DNA of 6,626 nt from an uncultured Gammaproteobacteria bacterium (GCA_964522265.1 CAZFVS010000029.1:4842-11467), one strand, 5' to 3'. Shown: positions 1 to 6,626, counted from the first letter of the stretch. Numbers and translations are program-made. Notes: generated by a model not told the origin, from the letters alone.

Positions 1-147
1 TATCAAGAGGAAGAGGCAGGAAAAAACGGCCGAACATAATGATCAGGAATCCTGCCAGTATCATCAGGATCCCTGGAATACTATGGAAAGGTTTTTTAAA
101 AAGTCTGTTAGCCAGCTCTCCGAGGTAAAAGAATGATACTGCACCAA
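1..147 (-). CDS. possible 5' part of a small membrane protein (partial, runs off the left edge)
   Basis: The minus-strand frame is open from TTG 147..145 (GTG 144..142; internal ATG 64..62 preceded by AGGGA) to the window edge. The translation ..HSIPGILMILAGFLIIMFGRFFLPLPLD contains one clear hydrophobic helix. It is not in the supplied track because it has no stop in the window. A competing plus-strand frame (2..136, highly charged, ends TGA) looks like the antisense shadow of a TM segment but cannot be excluded. Confidence 0.3.
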
Positions 148-176
148 TGAAAAAAGCTAAAATTATTCGCATTAGT

Positions 177-368
177 AAGCTTAAGTGTAAGGAATTTGAA
201 GCTGGAATGCAAATTGTACTGAGGTAACCGTTCAGGAGTTAACAAAACTTTTATCGTTCGAGGCTGGAAGCCGAGAACTAAATAAGTTTTTTACTTCTCT
301 CCGGCTTCGCCCGCCTTTGGCGTGGCTTCGCCGGATCGAAGAATAATATCCTTCGTCAAAGCTTAAGT
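177..368. repeat. 10-bp direct repeats AAGCTTAAGT (177-186 and 359-368) bracketing a 172-bp non-coding segment
   Basis: The exact 10-mer is read twice, 182 bp apart, in the intergenic region. The enclosed segment holds the only strongly GC-rich hairpins in this AT-rich window. Only a weak AAGGA-containing inverted match exists near the inner ends. Confidence 0.35.
301..355 (+). other. GC-rich nested stem-loop followed by a second hairpin (possible structured RNA or regulatory element)
   Basis: CCGGC(301-305)/GCCGG(330-334) forms an outer stem. A symmetric TTC/TTC internal loop separates it from the inner stem GCCCGCC(309-315)/GGCGTGGC(319-326), which has one bulged T and a TTT loop. The motif GGCTTCGCC occurs twice (303-311, 324-332). 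A second hairpin is CGAAG(337-341)/CTTCG(351-355) with a 9-nt loop. No U-tract follows on either strand, so it is not a canonical intrinsic terminator. Confidence 0.4.
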
Positions 369-379
369 TTGCAAACGAG

Positions 380-408
380 TTGCCTATACAGATATCTTAT
401 AGTACAAT
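380..408 (+). promoter_or_regulatory. sigma70-like promoter giving a near-leaderless transcript for the 416 ORF
   Basis: -35 TTGCCT (380-385), 17-nt spacer, -10 TACAAT (403-408), then 7 nt to ATG 416. There is no Shine-Dalgarno. The TTG at 380 that opens the supplied ORF coincides with the -35 hexamer. Confidence 0.4.
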
Positions 409-415
409 TATCCCC

Positions 416-997
416 ATGGCAAAACTATTAGAACTTGAAGGAACGTCCAAAATGTTAATTGATAACGCGGGGTCTTTTTCTGTATTTGATCCTTTCGCTA
501 ACTCAAGAAGAACAATAGGTCAAAGAGCAATTGCACTTATTCTTCGGCCTTTAATGCTAGCGGTAGCTTCGGGAAAGAGTACCCATTGGTTTGATTATCA
601 GGATCTAGAAGCTCCAGAATATTATGAAGGCTTAAGAATTCCAGGGGATTATAAAGCTTTTGACATTGGTCATCCCGATATTATCTTAAGACGACTTAGG
701 CATGTCCACATGAGCTTAGGAGGCTGGAAAGAAACTGTTCTAATAGGGCCAGATCCAGGCCGGGCTAACGCGGAAAGATTAGGAAAAACTGGATGGCTTT
801 ATGGATTTCGTGTATTAGGACCGGAGGGAACGGTATTAAAATCTCAGTACAGTCGGTTACTAAATCCTGGTTTTACCTCAATCCTTATCCTTAGAGGTCC
901 GAGAGAATTTGACGCGATTGGATTGGATCCGGAAACCTTGGATGAAATTCCTTTAGCTGGAATGAGACTCATTAGACGAGGGATAAATATTCAGTAG
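416..997 (+). CDS. hypothetical protein, 193 aa, no family recognised
   Basis: This is the supplied ORF 380..997. I prefer ATG 416 (MAKLLELEG..) because of the promoter geometry. ATG 452, preceded by AAGGA at 9 nt, is an alternative. The protein is soluble-looking and G/P/R-rich, with no TM segment, and the region is visibly higher in G+C than 2000-5400. Confidence 0.75.
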   Translation: MAKLLELEGTSKMLIDNAGSFSVFDPFANSRRTIGQRAIALILRPLMLAVASGKSTHWFDYQDLEAPEYYEGLRIPGDYKAFDIGHPDIILRRLRHVHMSLGGWKETVLIGPDPGRANAERLGKTGWLYGFRVLGPEGTVLKSQYSRLLNPGFTSILILRGPREFDAIGLDPETLDEIPLAGMRLIRRGINIQ

Positions 998-1063
998 GAC
1001 TTAGTCTTTGTACAAACCTCATCTTGATTTCGGGTAATATTTGGGGTAATGTAGAGTTATTCT

Positions 1064-1900
1064 ATGGAAAATAGTTTGGCAATCTTCGAAGATTATAAAA
1101 TCCGCCGCCTTTGGGATGAAAAAAAGGAGAAGTGGTATTTTTCTGTTGTGGATATTATCGCGGTTTTAACAGAGCGGCCTGGACATAAAAGAGCCCAAAG
1201 TTATTGGACAACACTAAAAAATCGCTTAAAAGAAGAAGGAAGCGAGGTCGTCACAAAATGTGACCAACTGAAAATGATGGCTTCTGATAGGAAATATTAT
1301 TTGACGGATGCTGCCGATGTGGAAACTATTTTACGGCTTATTCAATCAATTCCATCGCCAAATGTAGAACCATTCAAATTATGGCTTGCAAGAGTGGGTT
1401 ATGAAAGGATGCAGGAAACGGTTGATCCTGAAAGATCTCTAAACCGCGCCCGGGAAAACTGGCACAAGTTAGGCCGAAGCGAAAAATGGATCCAGCAAAG
1501 GATGATGGGCCAGGAGACCCGCAACAAACTAACAGATTATTGGAGTACTCATGAAATAAAAAAAGGAGAACAGTTTGCCGTATTAACCAATATTATTCAT
1601 CAGGAGTGGGCAGGATTAACTGTCAAAGAACATAAGGGTTTAAAAGGACTGAAGAATCAAAATTTGCGGGACCATATGAGTGAGGCAGAACTGATTTTTA
1701 CAGCCCTTGCGGAATTATCAACAAGACAAATAGCGCAAAGCAACAAAGCCACTGGTATGAAAGAAAATAAACAGGCAAGCAAAACAGGTGGCGGTATTGC
1801 CAAAAAAGCCAGGTTGGAACTGGAAGGGAAAACCGGCAAAAAAGTTATTTCTAAGGAAAATTATTTGGCATATAGGAATAAGGAGCTAGATATTAAATAA
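1064..1900 (+). CDS. Bro-N domain protein, DinD-like (DNA-damage-inducible protein D family)
   Basis: The N-terminus IFEDYKIRRLWDEKKEKWYFSVVDIIAVLTE..YW..LKNRLKEEGSE...LKMMASDRKYYLTDAADVETILRLIQSIPSPNVEPFKLWLA matches my recollection of the Bro-N fold family. The C-terminal FAVLTN..KEHKGLKGLKNQNLRDHMSEAEL resembles the E. coli DinD segment ..HQRKGLKKNQKILDHMGSTEL. The last 5 codons (1886-1900) are antisense to tatD fragment 1. Confidence 0.9.
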   Translation: MENSLAIFEDYKIRRLWDEKKEKWYFSVVDIIAVLTERPGHKRAQSYWTTLKNRLKEEGSEVVTKCDQLKMMASDRKYYLTDAADVETILRLIQSIPSPNVEPFKLWLARVGYERMQETVDPERSLNRARENWHKLGRSEKWIQQRMMGQETRNKLTDYWSTHEIKKGEQFAVLTNIIHQEWAGLTVKEHKGLKGLKNQNLRDHMSEAELIFTALAELSTRQIAQSNKATGMKENKQASKTGGGIAKKARLELEGKTGKKVISKENYLAYRNKELDIK

Positions 1901-2014
1901 TTGCTGAAAATTTTGGGCCGTTTGCTCTGCGACTTTTTCAAAAGGCTCGTTTTTAATGTCTGCAATTGTCTTGGCGATTTCTAAAACTGAAGCTGGTTCA
2001 TTTCTTGGGCCTAT
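1886..2014 (-). pseudogene. displaced 3' fragment of tatD (copy 1, last 42 codons plus stop)
   Basis: The minus-strand translation is GPRNEPASVLEIAKTIADIKNEPFEKVAEQTAQNFQQLFNI*. The real TatD end is GKRNEPSSVREIAQVVAEIKNKPLEKVASQTTDNVKKLFNI*. By hand, 26/41 aa and 92/126 nt are identical with no gaps. The fragment has no start codon or upstream ORF, and an in-frame TAA lies a few codons upstream. Confidence 0.8.
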
Positions 2015-2034
2015 TTTGAATAGTTGGTGGTACA

Positions 2035-2328
2035 ATTATTTCACAAGAATACGATTTATCTTCACATGCTCATCAGGAGCGGCAAGAAGAACAAATTACA
2101 ATAGATGAAATCGAGAGAGCAATCCTAAAAGGTGATATAATTGAAGAGTATCCGCAAGACCCAAGAGGGAAAAGCTGTTTGGTTAGCAGCAAAGCTGAGA
2201 GCAAGTCGCTCCATGTGGTTTGTGGATTTAGAGGAGAAAGATTGTTGATAGTGACAGTTTATCGTCCAAAACCACCGGTTTGGAAAGATTTTAAAACAAG
2301 AATAAAGGAGGTAAAAGATCGTGTCTAA
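2035..2328 (+). CDS. DUF4258-like putative toxin lacking a canonical start codon (possibly a pseudogene)
   Basis: The frame is open from after TGA 2017-2019 to TAA 2326-2328. The translation is IISQEYDLSSHAHQERQEEQITIDEIERAILKGDIIEEYPQDPRGKSCLVSSKAESKSLHVVCGFRGERLLIVTVYRPKPPVWKDFKTRIKEVKDRV. It fits the remembered DUF4258 pattern: S-x-HA..R.I near the N-terminus, LHVV, and TVY.P....W. The first in-frame ATG/GTG/TTG is TTG 2179, so the ORF fell below the track cutoff. Only ATT 2035/2038, downstream of GGTGG 2026-2030, could serve as a start. The stop overlaps the next gene's GTG by 8 nt. Confidence 0.65.
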   Translation: MISQEYDLSSHAHQERQEEQITIDEIERAILKGDIIEEYPQDPRGKSCLVSSKAESKSLHVVCGFRGERLLIVTVYRPKPPVWKDFKTRIKEVKDRV

Positions 2329-2563
2329 ATGTTTCTTTTGTAAAGGTAAAACTCAAATAAAAAAGATTAATGTTGATTTTAGATGGAGAGATCAACTATT
2401 TGTGGTAAATAATGTGCCAGTAGAGGTATGTACTCAGTGTGGTGAAAGGTATTATTCAGTAGAAGTGTCTAAAAAACTTGACCAGTTGGTTAAAAAACAA
2501 ACCAAGAATAACAAAATTAAGCCTAAAGAAATTATTGAAGTCCCTGTTTTTAGCTGGCAATAA
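2321..2563 (+). CDS. YgiT-type zinc-finger protein (MqsA N-terminal-like), putative antitoxin partner of DUF4258
   Basis: Two CxxC pairs (CFFC and CTQC) flank ..VVNNVPVEVCTQCGERYYS.EVSKKLDQL, the typical YgiT-type layout. The GTG start at 2321 has GGAGG (2307-2311) 9 nt upstream and overlaps the upstream stop. Confidence 0.85.
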   Translation: MSKCFFCKGKTQIKKINVDFRWRDQLFVVNNVPVEVCTQCGERYYSVEVSKKLDQLVKKQTKNNKIKPKEIIEVPVFSWQ

Positions 2564-2567
2564 TTTA

Positions 2568-3185
2568 ATGTCCCAAAAAGGTTTTGCTCCGATTGTTTTT
2601 ATTTTAGGAATTTTACTTGTTTCTGCTGGGATAATTGGCGGAGCATATTATTACAAAACAACTACAGAAAAGTCTAAGATTTCAGAACAAAAAAATATTA
2701 CTTCTAAAACCACACCAATCTCTACCCCAACAGACGAAAGTGCAAATTGGAAGATCTATACAAATAGTGATTGGCAAATAAGTTTCAATTATCCTTCAGG
2801 ATGGGAGATAGGATCTAATGGGCCTACTTCTATAGAACTAAATGTGAACTCAGCGCCCTATGTGAATTTTTCTTATATTGAGAACTCAAAAAACCTAACC
2901 CTGCAACAAATTGATCGAGAAAATACTAAAAAAGATAAAGAACGAGGGATGGGTGTTAACAGTCCTGCTGTCGCTCCTTCAAATTACACCATAATTACAA
3001 CCAAAAATGATTATAACACTTATTATGAAAAAGAATACTTCTGTGAACCTTCGGTATGTGAGAGATATACAATCGTTGTCTCAAACAAGATTATTCAAAT
3101 AGTGATATTCCCAAGGATGAAAGAACTTAAAGATTATTCTAAAATAATTGATCAAATTCTTTCTACCTTTAAATTTTTAGATTAA
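2568..3185 (+). CDS. N-terminally anchored secreted protein, 205 aa (paralog of the first 230 aa of 4231..5373)
   Basis: The in-frame ATG 2568 lies 4 nt after the zinc-finger stop. The supplied 2478 start would overlap that gene by 86 nt. The protein has MSQKGFAPIVFILGILLVSAGIIGGAYYY as a TM anchor, a T/S/P linker, an NWKIYTNSD..IS..YP motif, and ends IIDQILSTFKFLD*. The stop lies inside tatD fragment 2. Confidence 0.85.
   Translation: MSQKGFAPIVFILGILLVSAGIIGGAYYYKTTTEKSKISEQKNITSKTTPISTPTDESANWKIYTNSDWQISFNYPSGWEIGSNGPTSIELNVNSAPYVNFSYIENSKNLTLQQIDRENTKKDKERGMGVNSPAVAPSNYTIITTKNDYNTYYEKEYFCEPSVCERYTIVVSNKIIQIVIFPRMKELKDYSKIIDQILSTFKFLD
2600..2693 (+). repeat. 94-nt direct repeat, copy 1 (92/94 identical to 4269-4362)
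   Basis: Hand comparison finds only two mismatches (T/C in AATT[T/C]TAC and A/G in TAAG[A/G]TTT). The repeat covers the TM anchor and the start of the linker of the two paralogous genes. Confidence 0.9.
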
Positions 3186-3284
3186 AAAGCCTTTTGACAT
3201 TTCAGTTGTTTGATTGACAACTTTTTCAAACGGGACGTTTTTAATTGCCTCAACAGTTTGTGATTTCTCTACTGGAGGAGGTTT
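3177..3284 (-). pseudogene. displaced 3' fragment of tatD (copy 2, about 35 codons plus stop)
   Basis: The minus-strand translation is KPPPVEKSQTVEAIKNVPFEKVVNQTTEMSKGFLI*. The TatD end is ..VREIAQVVAEIKNKPLEKVASQTTDNVKKLFNI*. About 61/93 nt are identical by hand with one codon gap. It has no start and abuts the abiEii stop (3295-3297) in a different frame. Confidence 0.7.
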
Positions 3285-3294
3285 ACTGTTTGAA

Positions 3295-3966
3295 TTATTT
3301 AAATATATCACCTTTGAGTGATTTTGCTAAATTCAGGAAAAATTCTTCTAAAGCGGTTTTATTAAAGGGAGTAAGCATTTTTGGAAGATCTTCATCTTTA
3401 ATCTCCTTTGCCTTTACAAATTGGCTTGCTAAAGTTATTTTATCAATGTGCCAATCAAATTTTACTTTCGCATCTTTGATCAGCTGACCCAATTGATAAT
3501 TGAATGTTTTCATAATGAAGTAAATGTCAATAAAATCCCTGCCCCTTGTCCGCATAAACATGGTATGTATTTTATTAACTGCAATATCATAAATACTGTC
3601 TATCTCTAAATTTTTGTATTTTTTACCCTTTTCAATCCTGGGAAATGGATAATAGTTAAAGTCTACTTTTAAGTACTGATTATCCTTAAAAATCAAAATA
3701 TAGCTGACTAAACCTAAAAATTGGCTTTTTTTAACCTCTTTTATTTTAAGGGGGTGTGAAATTTTTCTTAGGAAGGTATCAATTAAAGTTTGGTCAACTT
3801 CTTCAGTTTCTGTAAAAAGGTCTATATCTTCTGATAATCTGTGATGCAGGTAAAACTCTGAAAGGACAGTTCCACCAGTAAAATAGAAGCGTTTAGTTAT
3901 TTGTGGCTCTTGTTGTATAAGCTCCAAAAAGTTAAGTTGTTGGGTAGTGAGTATAGTTTTCCCCAT
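3295..3966 (-). CDS. abiEii: nucleotidyltransferase AbiEii/AbiGii toxin family protein (DUF1814)
   Basis: FYFTGGTVLSEFYLHHRLSEDIDLFT carries the NTase hG[GS]..D.D signature. Together with ..RGRDFIDIYF.. and the 223-aa length, this is typical of AbiEii-family toxins as I recall them. Confidence 0.9.
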   Translation of the reverse strand: MGKTILTTQQLNFLELIQQEPQITKRFYFTGGTVLSEFYLHHRLSEDIDLFTETEEVDQTLIDTFLRKISHPLKIKEVKKSQFLGLVSYILIFKDNQYLKVDFNYYPFPRIEKGKKYKNLEIDSIYDIAVNKIHTMFMRTRGRDFIDIYFIMKTFNYQLGQLIKDAKVKFDWHIDKITLASQFVKAKEIKDEDLPKMLTPFNKTALEEFFLNLAKSLKGDIFK

Positions 3967-4160
3967 AGTAAATATTCAAGCAGCCTGGCTTTATATGGAT
4001 CAAGTTGACCCTTGATTTTAGGCCAGGCTTTTTTAACCTCCTCCCTATCCAGTTTTTCCCCATCCAGGCCATAATTTATAAGTTGAGTCAGTCTCCAAAG
4101 CTTATACCCTTTGGGATTTTCTTTTTTAAATCTTTTTTCATCAACAGACCAATTATACAT
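3897..4160 (-). CDS. small protein upstream of abiEii, putative cognate antitoxin (atypical: 87 aa, not a full AbiEi)
   Basis: This is the supplied ORF MYNWSVDEKRFKKENPKGYKLWRLTQLINYGLDGEKLDREEVKKAWPKIKGQLDPYKARLLEYLLWGK.. It is in the same operon position as AbiEi. Its final 23 codons overlap abiEii by 70 nt in another frame. An extended -10 lies 6 nt upstream of its ATG. Confidence 0.7.
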   Translation of the reverse strand: MYNWSVDEKRFKKENPKGYKLWRLTQLINYGLDGEKLDREEVKKAWPKIKGQLDPYKARLLEYLLWGKLYSLPNNLTFWSLYNKSHK

Positions 4161-4166
4161 CCTCTA

Positions 4167-4175
4167 ATTATACCA
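4167..4175 (-). promoter_or_regulatory. extended -10 promoter (TGGTATAAT) for the small-ORF/abiEii operon, near-leaderless
   Basis: The reverse complement of 4167-4175 is TGGTATAAT, followed by TAGAGG (6 nt) and ATG 4160. The -35 is weak (ACCTAA at 17-nt spacing). Confidence 0.4.
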
Positions 4176-4194
4176 AAATTTAGGCAGTTTTAGG

Positions 4195-4223
4195 TTGTCT
4201 ATTACCTGATCTTTTGCTATCTT
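4195..4223 (+). promoter_or_regulatory. sigma70-like promoter for the 4231 gene, near-leaderless
   Basis: -35 TTGTCT (4195-4200), 17-nt spacer, -10 TATCTT (4218-4223), then 7 nt to ATG 4231. There is no Shine-Dalgarno. Confidence 0.3.
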
Positions 4224-4230
4224 TAAATTA

Positions 4231-5373
4231 ATGCCATATTTTCAAAAAGGCTTTGCGCCAATAATAATTATTTTAGGAATTCTACTTGTTTCTGCTGGGA
4301 TAATTGGCGGAGCATATTATTACAAAACAACTACAGAAAAGTCTAAGGTTTCAGAACAAAAACCTGCCACTCCTAAAGCCACGCCAATTCCTTCCCAAGC
4401 AGATGAAACTGTAAATGAGGCAAAGCCTCTTTCCTCCGGAAATTGGAAAACATATACCAATTCAGATTTTGGCATTTCATTGGAGTATCCAGCAGATGCA
4501 GTAGTTAGCACAAAAACTCTTTATAGTATGCTGTCAAAATCGTCAAATGGTTTAGATATTGCCCCTCCTTATCAAGAACCATACTCAAAATACTACACCT
4601 TTGATTTAGTAGTACAAGATAATCCACAAAATCAGGATGCAAAAACAATAATCAACAACTATATAGCAGATATTAAGAAAAATTGTACCCCTCCTGCTTG
4701 TAGCACACCAAAAATGATTACTGATACATTAAAACCATATAAAAACGGAGAAATTAATGGGTATATCTTCCATATCGGAGCAGAGACTGATTCGGCAATG
4801 GTTGTACAAGTCAAAAGTAATAAAACTTATATTTTCAGAATGAGCGGAGATCAAGGAAATGTTTCCGATTACGGCCTGAATATTTTTGATCAAATCCTCT
4901 CTGCTTTTAATTTTTTAGATAAAGACATTTCAACTGAGAGAATAGTTATTAAGGATGATTATTGGTTTGAGTTTAATATTCCTAGGGGATACAGGTTAGA
5001 TCGTAATAAAATAGGTAGCTACTTAGGGTATATAGTAGATGAAAAAGGTAATAAATTATTAGGGTTTGGTTTTAATTCTGCGGGAGGCGAACTGTCTCCT
5101 AAGGGAAAGACGATTATAGATGGTGTTCCTTTTACTATTGAGTATGATACTGAAGTTAGTTGTTCAGTAGCTGTCTATCCTACAAATCTTAAATTTTCTT
5201 TAGATAGATTGTATTTTTTTGTTTCTACTTGGTGTAAACCCGGAGAAGAGGGGAAAAATATATCCAATAAATCTTTATATACAGATGTTATAAGCAGTAT
5301 AAAATTTAGTGATAAATTAAAAGATATTCTATTTGGGAAAACCCAACCACCGTTATTAAAAGAAATTGATTAG
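4231..5373 (+). CDS. N-terminally anchored secreted protein, 380 aa (paralog of 2568..3185 plus a 150-aa C-terminal extension)
   Basis: The protein has MPYFQKGFAPIIIILGILLVSAGIIGGAYYYKTTTEKSK as a TM anchor, a P/T/A linker and the NWKTYTNSDFGISLEYP motif. IFDQILSAFNFLD at residues 218-230 aligns with the paralog's C-terminus, and the ORF then continues for 150 more codons. The stop TAG 5371-5373 overlaps the tatD stop convergently. Confidence 0.85.
   Translation: MPYFQKGFAPIIIILGILLVSAGIIGGAYYYKTTTEKSKVSEQKPATPKATPIPSQADETVNEAKPLSSGNWKTYTNSDFGISLEYPADAVVSTKTLYSMLSKSSNGLDIAPPYQEPYSKYYTFDLVVQDNPQNQDAKTIINNYIADIKKNCTPPACSTPKMITDTLKPYKNGEINGYIFHIGAETDSAMVVQVKSNKTYIFRMSGDQGNVSDYGLNIFDQILSAFNFLDKDISTERIVIKDDYWFEFNIPRGYRLDRNKIGSYLGYIVDEKGNKLLGFGFNSAGGELSPKGKTIIDGVPFTIEYDTEVSCSVAVYPTNLKFSLDRLYFFVSTWCKPGEEGKNISNKSLYTDVISSIKFSDKLKDILFGKTQPPLLKEID
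4269..4362 (+). repeat. 94-nt direct repeat, copy 2 (92/94 identical to 2600-2693)
   Basis: See copy 1. Looser similarity extends upstream to about 4243 (matching about 2574). Confidence 0.9.
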
Positions 5374-6233
5374 ATATTAAAAAGTTTTTTAACATTATCT
5401 GTAGTCTGACTTGCAACTTTTTCCAAAGGCTTGTTTTTAATTTCTGCAACTACCTGTGCGATTTCGCGGACTGAGGATGGTTCATTTCTTTTACCCCGGA
5501 TTGACTGGGGAGGTAAAAATGGGGAATCTGTTTCCAAAACAATCCTTTCTAAAGGTAATATCCTAACCGCTTCTTTTAAATAATCATTCTTGGGATAAGT
5601 TAAGTTTCCGGCAAAAGATACATAAAAATTAGTATTAAGTAGTAAGTATTTAGTAGTAAGCGAAAGGCCGGAATAACAGTGATAGACGCCTTTCCAGTCT
5701 TTGGTCATTTCTATAACTTCATCCCAAGCCTCAGTGTTCTCCGGGTTTTTAGTCCTGTCATCGCGGCAATGTATTAATAAAGGTAGGTTTAGCTTTTTTG
5801 CCAGGTCGATTTGGGATTGAAACAACTTTCTCTGTAAATTTTTCGCTTGTTCAACTGATAAGCCGAGAGGTAAATATCCTTCCCTGTTAAAATATGCAAA
5901 GTCCAGCCCGCATTCGCCGATTGCAATCACAGTTTCTCTGTTTTCGAGATAAATTTTTTCCAGAGCCGCGAGATCTTTCCCCATAATACTTGATACTTGT
6001 CCCTTGTCCCAGTATTTAACCGCTTCTTCAGGATGGATTGCAATGGAAGAATAAAGTTTAAATTCAGCGGAAGATTCCTTTTTAGCCTGTTCGGTAGCAG
6101 TCCGGCTTAAATTAACATCCACACCGACATTTATCGCAGCTGTGACCCCGGCTTCAATGGCACGGTTTATCACATCTTTAATATCGTTTTTGTATGAGTC
6201 CCAAAATAAATGTGCATGGGTATCTATAAACAT
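5370..6233 (-). CDS. tatD: TatD-family metal-dependent hydrolase/DNase
   Basis: The ORF shows the classic TatD motifs: MFIDTHAHL, IAIGECGLDF, LLIHCRD, YHCYSG and LETDSPFLPPQSIRGKRNEP. It is 287 aa long. Confidence 0.95.
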   Translation of the reverse strand: MFIDTHAHLFWDSYKNDIKDVINRAIEAGVTAAINVGVDVNLSRTATEQAKKESSAEFKLYSSIAIHPEEAVKYWDKGQVSSIMGKDLAALEKIYLENRETVIAIGECGLDFAYFNREGYLPLGLSVEQAKNLQRKLFQSQIDLAKKLNLPLLIHCRDDRTKNPENTEAWDEVIEMTKDWKGVYHCYSGLSLTTKYLLLNTNFYVSFAGNLTYPKNDYLKEAVRILPLERIVLETDSPFLPPQSIRGKRNEPSSVREIAQVVAEIKNKPLEKVASQTTDNVKKLFNI

Positions 6234-6240
6234 AAAGATA

Positions 6241-6246
6241 ATTATA
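6241..6246 (-). promoter_or_regulatory. -10 hexamer TATAAT 7 nt upstream of the tatD ATG (near-leaderless)
   Basis: The reverse complement of 6241-6246 is TATAAT, followed by TATCTTT and ATG (6233..6231). I found no convincing -35 and no Shine-Dalgarno. Confidence 0.35.
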
Positions 6247-6307
6247 CAACTGTTGTTTCTAAATACTCTATCTTGTTTTGTTATACAAGCTATGTTATTA
6301 AATATAT

Positions 6308-6626
6308 ATGAATCTGCCTAAGCCACAAAAGGGGATTGCAGCCATTCTTATATTAGGGTTGGTAGTTGCGGTAGCTGCTGCGGTTTATTTTTTTGTACTT
6401 AATAAACCAGGCGTTAACCCTCCTCAAAATCAAGTTATTAAAACTTTACCTAAACCACTCTTTCTTAATTTAGAAAGCCCAAGCAGTCAGACTGTGGCAA
6501 TTGATGACAATATTTTGATTAAAGGTAAAACATTACCCAATAGCAGGGTAGTGCTGTTTAATGCAACAGATGAGGAGGTTTTGGAGAGTGATTCTGAAGG
6601 TAAATTTATGGGGAAATTGCAACTTG
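6308..6626 (+). CDS. N-terminally anchored protein, partial (runs off the right edge)
   Basis: I translated from ATG 6308 to the window end and found no stop. The translation is MNLPKPQKGIAAILILGLVVAVAAAVYFFVLNKPGVNPPQNQ..ILIKGKTLPNSRVVLFNATDEEVLESDSEGKFMGKLQL. It has a TM anchor with the same QKG[FI]A opening as the other two anchored proteins. The beta-rich G.T.P...V.LF....ESDSEGKF pattern resembles Ig-like or carboxypeptidase-regulatory-like domains. Confidence 0.6.
   Translation, partial: MNLPKPQKGIAAILILGLVVAVAAAVYFFVLNKPGVNPPQNQVIKTLPKPLFLNLESPSSQTVAIDDNILIKGKTLPNSRVVLFNATDEEVLESDSEGKFMGKLQL

Follow-up and report, generated by a model that had tools for sequence, protein, structure and literature searches.

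How the 3′ end of a housekeeping gene comes to stand three times, in one orientation, among small toxin, antitoxin and surface-protein genes is the question raised by a 6,626-nt stretch of DNA from an uncultured bacterium (GCA_964522265.1 CAZFVS010000029.1:4842-11467), which in its full length is called the window here and has a GC content of 36%. The gene is tatD, and its complete, live copy lies near the right end of the window, 5.2 kb away from a gene for a 590-aa membrane protein. Our reading, to which we give a probability of roughly 55%, is that the interval between tatD and the membrane-protein gene is an insertion hotspot in a lineage of ultra-small, Daviesbacteria-like bacteria, and that in this genome it is occupied by an accretion array built by single-crossover insertions.

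The three copies of the tatD 3′ end are direct repeats on the minus strand, and comprise the end of the live gene (5370-5503) and two fragments that lie among the following features.

2 to 172, minus strand: N-terminal 57 codons of the gene for the 590-aa membrane protein (47% identity to the 590-aa protein of locus L006, E=1e-15; the Pfam GT2 match is weak), the product beginning MRIILAFFIGAVSFFYLGE...
1019 to 1900, plus strand: Bro-N/DinD unit, about 45 nt of conserved upstream sequence and a 278-aa gene at 1064-1900 (Pfam Bro-N; PADLOC PDC-S13, E=1e-119)
1887 to about 2045, minus strand: tatD 3′-end fragment 1 (nhmmer E=6e-30 over 1887-2012)
2020 to 2328, plus strand: open reading frame (ORF) for a DUF4258 toxin-like protein (Pfam E=2.7e-22)
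2321 to 2563, plus strand: YgiT-type zinc-finger gene, MqsA-like antitoxin (TIGR03831, E=1e-12; 81% amino acid identity to the L007 homolog)
2568 to 3185, plus strand: anchA, an anchored protein with an N-terminal membrane anchor, a Pro/Thr linker and a predicted PsbP/Mog1-like ectodomain
3177 to 3290, minus strand: tatD 3′-end fragment 2 (nhmmer E=4e-13 over 3177-3282)
3295 to 3966, minus strand: AbiEii-family nucleotidyltransferase toxin (Pfam PF08843, E=9e-19; 21 PADLOC AbiEii models match)
3897 to 4160, minus strand: 87-aa partner of AbiEii, putative antitoxin (from the ORF list)
4231 to 5373, plus strand: anchB, an anchored paralog with an extra C-terminal domain (BLASTP against anchA, E=3e-27)
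5370 to 6233, minus strand: live tatD, complete (Pfam TatD_DNase, E=4e-64)

An nhmmer profile made from relatives' tatD ends recovered the live end with E=5e-31 alongside the two fragments. All three copies contain a 26-nt block, ATTAAAAACNNNCCNTTNGAAAAAGT, that encodes the conserved TatD motif EIKNxPxEKV and occurs exactly three times in the window (1932-1957, 3220-3245 and 5416-5441, on the minus strand each time), with no occurrence expected by chance in 200 shuffles. Fragment 1 keeps about 44 uninterrupted codons, GPRNEPASVLEIAKTIADIKNEPFEKVAEQTAQNFQQLFNI*, followed by a frameshifted but recognizable stretch to about 2045 (VPPTIQNRPKK, compare LPPQSIRGKRN), and fragment 2 has a 1-nt deletion in its tail and a decayed upstream part. 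An earlier note on this DNA had described two mini-cassettes beside tatD-end copies, and both this layout and every gene it named (DUF4258, YgiT, AbiEii with its small partner, the two anchored proteins and tatD) were recovered by gene calling and profile search. The stops also fall where it had placed them, that of anchA (3183-3185) inside fragment 2 and that of anchB (5371-5373) overlapping the tatD stop. Unit A thus consists of DUF4258, YgiT/MqsA and anchA, and unit B of AbiEii, its 87-aa partner and anchB; since the Bro-N gene also terminates within a tatD-end copy, with its stop at 1900 inside fragment 1, the window holds at least three units.

The relatives available for comparison are short metagenomic contigs whose TatD proteins are 53-76% identical to that of the window, the closest overall reaching 76% and the closest with readable context, at locus L008, 75%. 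Five of them (L001, L002, L004, L008 and L012) have an empty site, in which tatD is followed 44-106 nt on by the gene for the 590-aa membrane protein on the same strand, that protein being about 70% identical between the five. Because the start of the membrane-protein gene sits at 2-172 of the window, the 5.2 kb from 173 to 5369 represent inserted DNA. A scan of GTDB genomes with tatD returned four loci of 55-71% identity, all of them empty sites and none with a match to any other window gene. Six loci, the window included, carry different content at this one site. L006 has a ParE-like/Phd-YefM pair and a 313-aa anchored protein converging on tatD; L043 has a MazF/MazE pair, which adjoins tatD, and an unrelated 218-aa membrane protein; a DnaJ-domain protein and one of 186 aa are found in L003; in L044 the Bro-N gene directly abuts the live tatD; and L007 runs in the order Bro-N, short tatD fragment, MqsA, 232-aa anchored protein, tatD. 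Both flanks are visible in the five empty loci and in four others, which differ in the cargo held between tatD and the membrane-protein gene. Two further contigs show the same kinds of units in other orders: an anchA-like gene (70% amino acid identity), a tatD fragment, Bro-N (91%), a second tatD fragment and further sequence in L005, and a 153-aa gene, a decayed tatD fragment, Bro-N (97%) and another tatD fragment in L009.

The inserted units also differ in composition, with a GC content of 30-33% in units A and B against 38-39% in tatD and the membrane-protein gene. Searches with Pfam, NCBIfam, PHROGs and PADLOC found no recombinase domain in any ORF of the window and no transfer domain in any ORF of 173-5369, and the two cassettes are recombinase-less as the earlier note had said; nor did the annotated or scanned genes of the occupied contigs from relatives include a recombinase. 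The same note had reasoned that cassettes with fixed content across relatives, or a conventional integrase-bearing prophage spanning the region, would speak against mobile islands. Neither was seen, as content and order differ between loci, and the 5.2 kb between the two core genes contain no integrase and no phage structural genes. With five empty sites, six loci with different inserts and a shuffled order of units, the region is accessory and variable at a fixed site.

The Bro-N unit is a discrete cassette of about 1 kb. Its homology to L005, L009 and L007 starts at window position 1019, giving the same left boundary, and the minimal unit of about 1 kb recurs in five contigs with differing neighbors. 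Copies of the tatD end stand at both sides of it in L005 and L009, and its position varies, being distal in the window and L007, against tatD in L044 and after the anchA-like unit in L005. The Bro-N protein matches the PADLOC candidate defense family PDC-S13 over its full length, matches phrog_15286 as well, and has homologs that some sources label DinD. It is 73-80% identical across Omnitrophota, Acidobacteria, Proteobacteria and Patescibacteria, a conservation and spread that are unusual for an accessory gene, and an argument for horizontal transfer from 90% identity in Bro-N against 56% in tatD was dropped for this reason.

The origin of the repeats can be followed through their tails, defined as the last approximately 50 nt of each tatD-end copy. 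Across genomes the tails group by the gene that converges on them, and not by genome or by the body of tatD. Those linked to anchored proteins (W_live and W_f2 in the window, L005_fA, L006_live and L007_live) are 72-83% alike, and those linked to Bro-N (L005_fB, L007_f and L009_fR) are 78-85% alike, while the three tails of the window are 57-76% alike with none the nearest relative of another. The live tail of the window is 80-83% identical to anchored-protein-linked tails elsewhere versus 61% to that of L008, the closest relative by TatD body with readable context, and it would appear from this that the last 14-22 or so codons of live tatD (5370 to about 5441) were supplied by unit B. The tail of fragment 1 is similar to that of the live tatD in L044, the locus with Bro-N directly against tatD; fragment 1 is probably a former live end displaced by the insertion of unit A, and the L044 arrangement matches the precursor state predicted before unit A arrived. 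In three fragments (W_f2, L005_fA and L009_fL) the sequence upstream of the 26-nt block is only 41-56% identical to tatD, and the block and tail are 72-83% identical. Such asymmetric decay is expected if the crossover lay near the block, since the upstream arm would be element-borne and never selected, whereas the block and tail would have been live until the next insertion. A trace of the displaced native end is found in L043, where a 16/16-nt relic of a native tatD tail (GTTTAATTTGCAAACT, with the LFNLQT end seen in L002) stands at the far edge of the insert beside the native spacer. In the window a weak 20-nt relic at 274-293 shares 80% identity with positions 5372-5391 of the live tail (local alignment against the L001 tail, p=0.007).

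The C-termini of the TatD proteins vary as well. Some empty sites have a longer type (L002/L012 ...LFNLQTVN, L008 ...LFGLQ), and shorter ends (...LFNI, ...LFNF) occur at sites with a converging inserted gene, the empty sites of L001 and L004 ending differently. In this small sample (P0139-P0157 and L001-L004), tail type might partly predict site occupancy from protein sequence alone.

These observations can be drawn together in a mechanism of stepwise accretion at tatD. The array would hold three or more small units, each of about 1-2 kb and lacking a recombinase gene, and we infer that each entered as a circular molecule bearing a segment resembling the tatD tail. A single (Campbell-type) crossover within the last 20-50 or so codons of tatD would allow the incoming unit to supply a new tail and thereby keep tatD intact, its outermost converging gene overlapping that tail, and the earlier tail would be displaced and left behind as a fragment. 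The newest unit would then be the one adjoining tatD, giving an order of arrival of orf205 (described below) and Bro-N, then unit A, then unit B. Once in place, the toxin-antitoxin (TA) and abortive infection (Abi) pairs could plausibly guard the units from deletion between direct repeats, both those of the tatD ends and those of the anchored-protein N-termini. The enzyme may be a site-specific recombinase encoded elsewhere and acting in trans, a possibility that we rate at somewhat short of even odds. RecA as the sole agent is disfavored, as the tatD ends are 57-83% identical with no long identical tracts and the units stand beside TatD proteins that differ by 29-47%. A bolder form of the proposal, tentative and in our estimate rather unlikely, is that bacteria of the Candidate Phyla Radiation (CPR), here Daviesbacteria-like, possess an integron-like cassette system, in which a stretch of about 26 nt in the 3′ coding end of tatD would serve as the recombination site in place of an attC hairpin, and a recombinase encoded elsewhere would capture, reorder and remove free cassettes of about 1-2 kb with their own tatD tails.

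Several observations weigh against the accretion mechanism. Neither a recombinase, nor a circular form, nor a free element bearing an attP site was found in IMG/VR, JGI metagenomes, plasmids or phages. IMG/VR gave 0 matches to the block pattern, and its Bro-N relatives were at most 67% identical and lacked tatD ends; a scan of JGI metagenomes with the 26-nt block returned 33 loci, of which only one was a close tatD (L012, with the layout of L002) and none was an array; the plasmid and phage collections yielded only weak Bro-N matches, in Bacteroidales plasmids. The 26-nt block shows no inverted-repeat symmetry or hairpin, and no att function is required to explain why it is conserved in the live copy, since it encodes a TatD motif. 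Fragment boundaries range between about 19 and 52 codons, and W_f1 and L005_fB have well-preserved upstream parts; variable crossover points, as in homologous recombination, fit this at least as well as a single fixed core does. Distal tail relics are no more than marginal (p~0.01-0.05) in the window, L003 and L006, the contigs of L005 and L009 do not extend to a live tatD, and the cross-phylum conservation of Bro-N/DinD means that high identity between loci is no proof of recent transfer. With relatives this diverged and on short contigs, events cannot be ordered on a tree. The attempt to fix a single crossover nucleotide also failed, as the fragment boundaries differ and the copies are too diverged. 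Junctions at one position inside ATTAAAAAC...GAAAAAGT would point to site-specific recombination, and scattered ones to homologous recombination.

The variable boundaries bring in an explanation that dispenses with a dedicated recombinase altogether, in which the interval is a hotspot flanked by core genes that turns over either by double crossover, through tatD and the membrane-protein gene, with DNA acquired from relatives, or by RecA-dependent single crossover of circularized tatD-end fragments, the latter giving the tatD-end repeats. The conserved flanking genes and the lack of a recombinase on any contig agree with it, as do the fresh upstream parts of W_f1 (about 100 nt) and L005_fB, and the homogenized anchored-protein N-termini described below imply that recombination between short repeats is active here within the genome. 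However, tatD ends that differ this much between loci would be a poor RecA substrate unless the strains were near-identical, the same units stand beside tatD genes of very different protein sequence, and the fragments with decayed upstream parts all change sharply in conservation at the same 26-nt block; we consider this explanation unlikely while granting it some weight. It may also be asked whether the units are the remains of something larger. Cis-mobilizable elements (CIMEs) are att-flanked elements without an integrase that have accreted in tandem at the 3′ end of a gene (PMC5704250), and the att-like 3′-end repeats, tandem accretion and missing integrase seen here reproduce that architecture. 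Integrase-bearing islands or prophages that once targeted the tatD 3′ end, and later lost their integrases by deletion, would leave CIMEs in the strict sense, and there are signs of decay in the lost start of DUF4258, the deletion of the toxin in L007 and the frameshift in fragment 2. Yet the 5.2 kb of tightly packed ORFs contain no integrase pseudogene or remnant of a mobility gene, no integrase stands beside any occupied site, and the recurrence in five contigs of a Bro-N unit of about 1 kb with its left boundary at 1019 is not expected from random decay, all of which makes this history improbable.

The remaining alternative, raised in the earlier note itself, is that a segment consisting of an anchored gene and a tatD end was duplicated in situ and that the TA pairs were acquired independently. 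The module of an anchored gene converging on a tatD end is indeed present twice, and the N-terminal coding regions of the two anchored genes are 87% identical in DNA. Against this, anchA is much nearer to the L005 protein (70% amino acid identity) than to anchB (39%), the tatD-end copies of the window are not mutual nearest relatives, being 57-76% alike but up to 83% identical to copies with the same neighbor elsewhere, one more tatD end goes with Bro-N, a gene unrelated to the anchored ones, and Bro-N units are flanked by tatD ends elsewhere in other orders. The N-terminal similarity exceeds that to orthologues in that segment only, which local gene conversion explains, and duplication in situ is to our mind very improbable.

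The cargo of the accretion array comprises TA or abortive-infection pairs, the candidate single-gene defense protein (Bro-N/DinD) and variable membrane-anchored proteins with a predicted PsbP fold. In the candidate type II TA pair of unit A, the YgiT gene overlaps DUF4258 by 8 nt and scores below the MqsA-family cutoffs (25.8 versus 30 bits, and 23.1 versus 61.8 bits). The DUF4258 ORF begins inside tatD fragment 1, its frame contains no ATG, GTG or TTG start, and it is probably truncated at its 5′ end, judging from the reading frame. L007 lacks the toxin: an AAAGG microhomology between the tatD fragment and the ribosome-binding site of MqsA marks the junction (L007 405-480), and the antitoxin is left as an orphan. 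With the toxin start missing in the window and the toxin deleted in L007, the module of unit A is decaying. In unit B, AbiEii matches the nucleotidyltransferase toxin of type IV AbiE systems (PF08843, E=9e-19), and no AbiEi antitoxin, a winged-helix transcriptional regulator, was identified upstream of it, the 87-aa partner matching no AbiEi or other model in Pfam, NCBIfam, PADLOC or PHROGs. Its position and its overlap of 70 nt with the start of AbiEii (3897-3966) would fit an antitoxin, perhaps of a small type not yet described, unless the starts of the two genes have been wrongly placed. Four TA families (DUF4258/YgiT, AbiE, ParE/Phd and MazEF) are thus found at one site in four lineages, a diversity that would fit a stabilizing (addiction) role or one in defense. 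The plan set out in the earlier note, with a TA pair placed distally and an anchored protein at the tatD end, is common, although not universal: the Bro-N unit has neither component, MazEF adjoins tatD in L043 in company with the unrelated membrane protein, and L003 carries a DnaJ-domain protein.

The anchored proteins share a layout of N-terminal transmembrane helix, Pro/Thr-rich linker and ectodomain, with anchA ending in QILSTFKFLD. At 39% identity over a BLASTP match of E=3e-27 the two proteins of the window are paralogous, as had been proposed, and their ectodomains diverge markedly. The ectodomain is predicted to take a PsbP/Mog1-like fold, the AlphaFold model of anchA (pLDDT 74) giving Foldseek matches to PsbP and BT_1490 with E=8e-6 to 1e-3, and the Pfam PsbP_2 match being weak. 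An extra C-terminal domain is found in anchB and in the anchored protein of L006, which also abuts tatD and is 62% identical to anchB at the N-terminus. In anchB this second domain (residues 231-380, 4921-5373) ends in ISSIKFSDKL, a degenerate copy of QILSTFKFLD, and a two-domain layout of the same kind is seen in P0013 and P0017; it suggests a tandem duplication of the PsbP-like domain. Homologs are rare, only 17 having been found among 5.8 billion clusters. Context is readable for five: four of these adjoin a tatD end, and the fifth neighbors a BrnT/BrnA pair. A homolog away from any tatD, P0003 (48% identity, on an ENA contig), has BrnT/BrnA, a PIN-domain pair, a Gp49/HTH pair, a TraG/DUF87-like ATPase and a XerC/D-like recombinase nearby, and its neighborhood looks like another TA-rich accessory region. 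At the DNA level the N-terminal coding regions of anchA and anchB share the following repeat.

2600 to 2710 with 4269 to 4379, plus strand: direct repeat in the anchored-protein N-terminal coding region (102/111 nt identical)

Within the 150 nt over which the two genes are 87% identical, this segment reaches 92% and includes an identical run of about 65 nt, while similarity of the N-terminal coding regions to orthologues in other genomes is only 72-79%. The comparison indicates homogenization within the genome, apparently by local gene conversion. The homogenized N-termini consequently form a direct repeat spaced by 1669 bp, recombination across which could delete the body of anchA, fragment 2 and the AbiE pair.

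Two further features lie at the distal end of the inserted DNA.

250 to 350, no strand assigned: multi-hairpin, rich in GC, at the outer margin of the insert (fold z: minus strand -5.5, plus strand -3.9)
380 to 997, plus strand: orf205, a protein of unknown function and the most distal inserted gene (ORF call)

The multi-hairpin is a GC-rich patch amid AT-rich surroundings, contains the weak tail relic of 274-293 and matches no Rfam family, and orf205 has no match in Pfam, NCBIfam, PHROGs or PADLOC and is absent from all relatives examined. No tRNA is present in the window, nor any credible Rfam family, a snoR64 match (E=0.06, under the gathering score) being attributed to chance. In L005 a strong hairpin (1930-1990, z=-6.0) lies a short way into the unit after the second tatD fragment, and the other end of that contig (1-40) carries the motif CGCAAGCTYTGC, common to 1930-1990; hairpin and shared motif may belong to a small repeated element or to a structure at the end of a cassette. 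Upstream of tatD, the window continues (6234-6626) into a divergently transcribed gene for a membrane or secreted protein, starting from 6308. Most relatives (L003, L007, L008 and L044) carry methionyl-tRNA synthetase at this position, and the other flank of tatD has therefore also been rearranged in the window genome.

The earlier note had named no described element type with such an architecture; CIMEs with tandem accretion (PMC5704250) and defense hotspots flanked by core genes are close analogues. The CIMEs related to ICESt1/ICESt3 at fda of Streptococcus thermophilus share with the tatD units the bounding att-like repeats that stem from a housekeeping gene's 3′ end, tandem stacking, an element-borne replacement end and the lack of integration and transfer genes (PMC5704250). 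Units A and B are each flanked by direct repeats of attL/attR type containing the target's 3′ end, and carry no integrase, excisionase or transfer genes. In contrast to CIMEs, the tatD units are far smaller (1-2 kb, with 1-3 genes), show no homology to modules from integrative and conjugative elements (ICEs) or integrative and mobilizable elements (IMEs), reside in a CPR host and have no known cognate element bearing an integrase. Descent from an ICE or IME finds no counterpart here, no integrase-bearing tatD relative having been seen at the occupied loci, in IMG/VR or JGI, or among plasmids and phages, where sampling is limited. That minimal units recur in different orders suggests that they move as such and are not products of decay.

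Phage 21 and e14, which insert at icd of E. coli, are integrase-encoding prophages of 15-40 kb that bring a diverged alternative 3′ end. They resemble the tatD units in inserting into the 3′ coding end of a housekeeping gene, in supplying a new end and in leaving the displaced original as a pseudo-fragment, but no integrase and no phage genes are found at tatD. Chromosomal integrons collect cassettes of about 1 kb, with the newest by the insertion point and a cargo rich in TA pairs, which are considered to stabilize the array. Integron arrays and clusters of attC sites lacking integron-integrases (CALINs) are similar in being arrays of small cassettes at one site with the newest beside it, and in carrying TA pairs and small secreted or unknown proteins, yet the repeats at tatD are coding ends instead of attC, gene orientation is mixed, and units hold up to 2-3 genes. 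A search for attC-like structure led to its rejection, the fold z of the tatD ends on both strands being +0.5 to -2.0, with 5/6 within 1.4 standard deviations of shuffles, and no IntI or attI is present in the window, where tatD itself adjoins the array. Another integrase-less class, the integrative mobile elements exploiting Xer (IMEX), integrates at dif through the host-encoded Xer recombinase acting in trans and can form tandem arrays; the target at tatD is a coding end and not dif, and inspection by eye, with no formal search made, revealed no obvious dif-like sequence. The likeness to defense hotspots flanked by core genes lies in conserved tatD and membrane-protein genes around a variable cargo (AbiE, four TA families and a PADLOC candidate) with no mobility genes, and the tatD site shows the same conserved flanks with variable defense and TA content that define such hotspots. 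Typical hotspots, however, lack copies of the flanking-gene end between their systems, whereas at tatD these repeats give insertion footprints. Among these known kinds, the tatD array stands out by the smallness of its units, their recurrence as discrete cassettes, the footprint left by each unit and the CPR host.

The bacteria of the CPR, or Patescibacteria, have tiny genomes and are thought to carry few defense systems and mobile elements. A fixed site that gathers units of about 1 kb, among them TA and Abi pairs, a candidate defense gene and variable surface proteins, would show how streamlined episymbionts maintain a cheap and flexible gene pool, and its tatD-tail footprints document the sequence in which the units were acquired, an uncommon feature among defense hotspots. 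Should the units be inserted by homologous recombination driven by RecA, the locus would still show clearly how a hotspot turns over naturally in uncultivated bacteria. A recombinase acting in trans would, if true, constitute a new and very compact mechanism of cassette capture and a possible tool for site-specific insertion, and the integron-like reading, if true, would add a compact, TA-stabilized store of defense and surface-variation genes to genomes thought to be poor in mobile elements.

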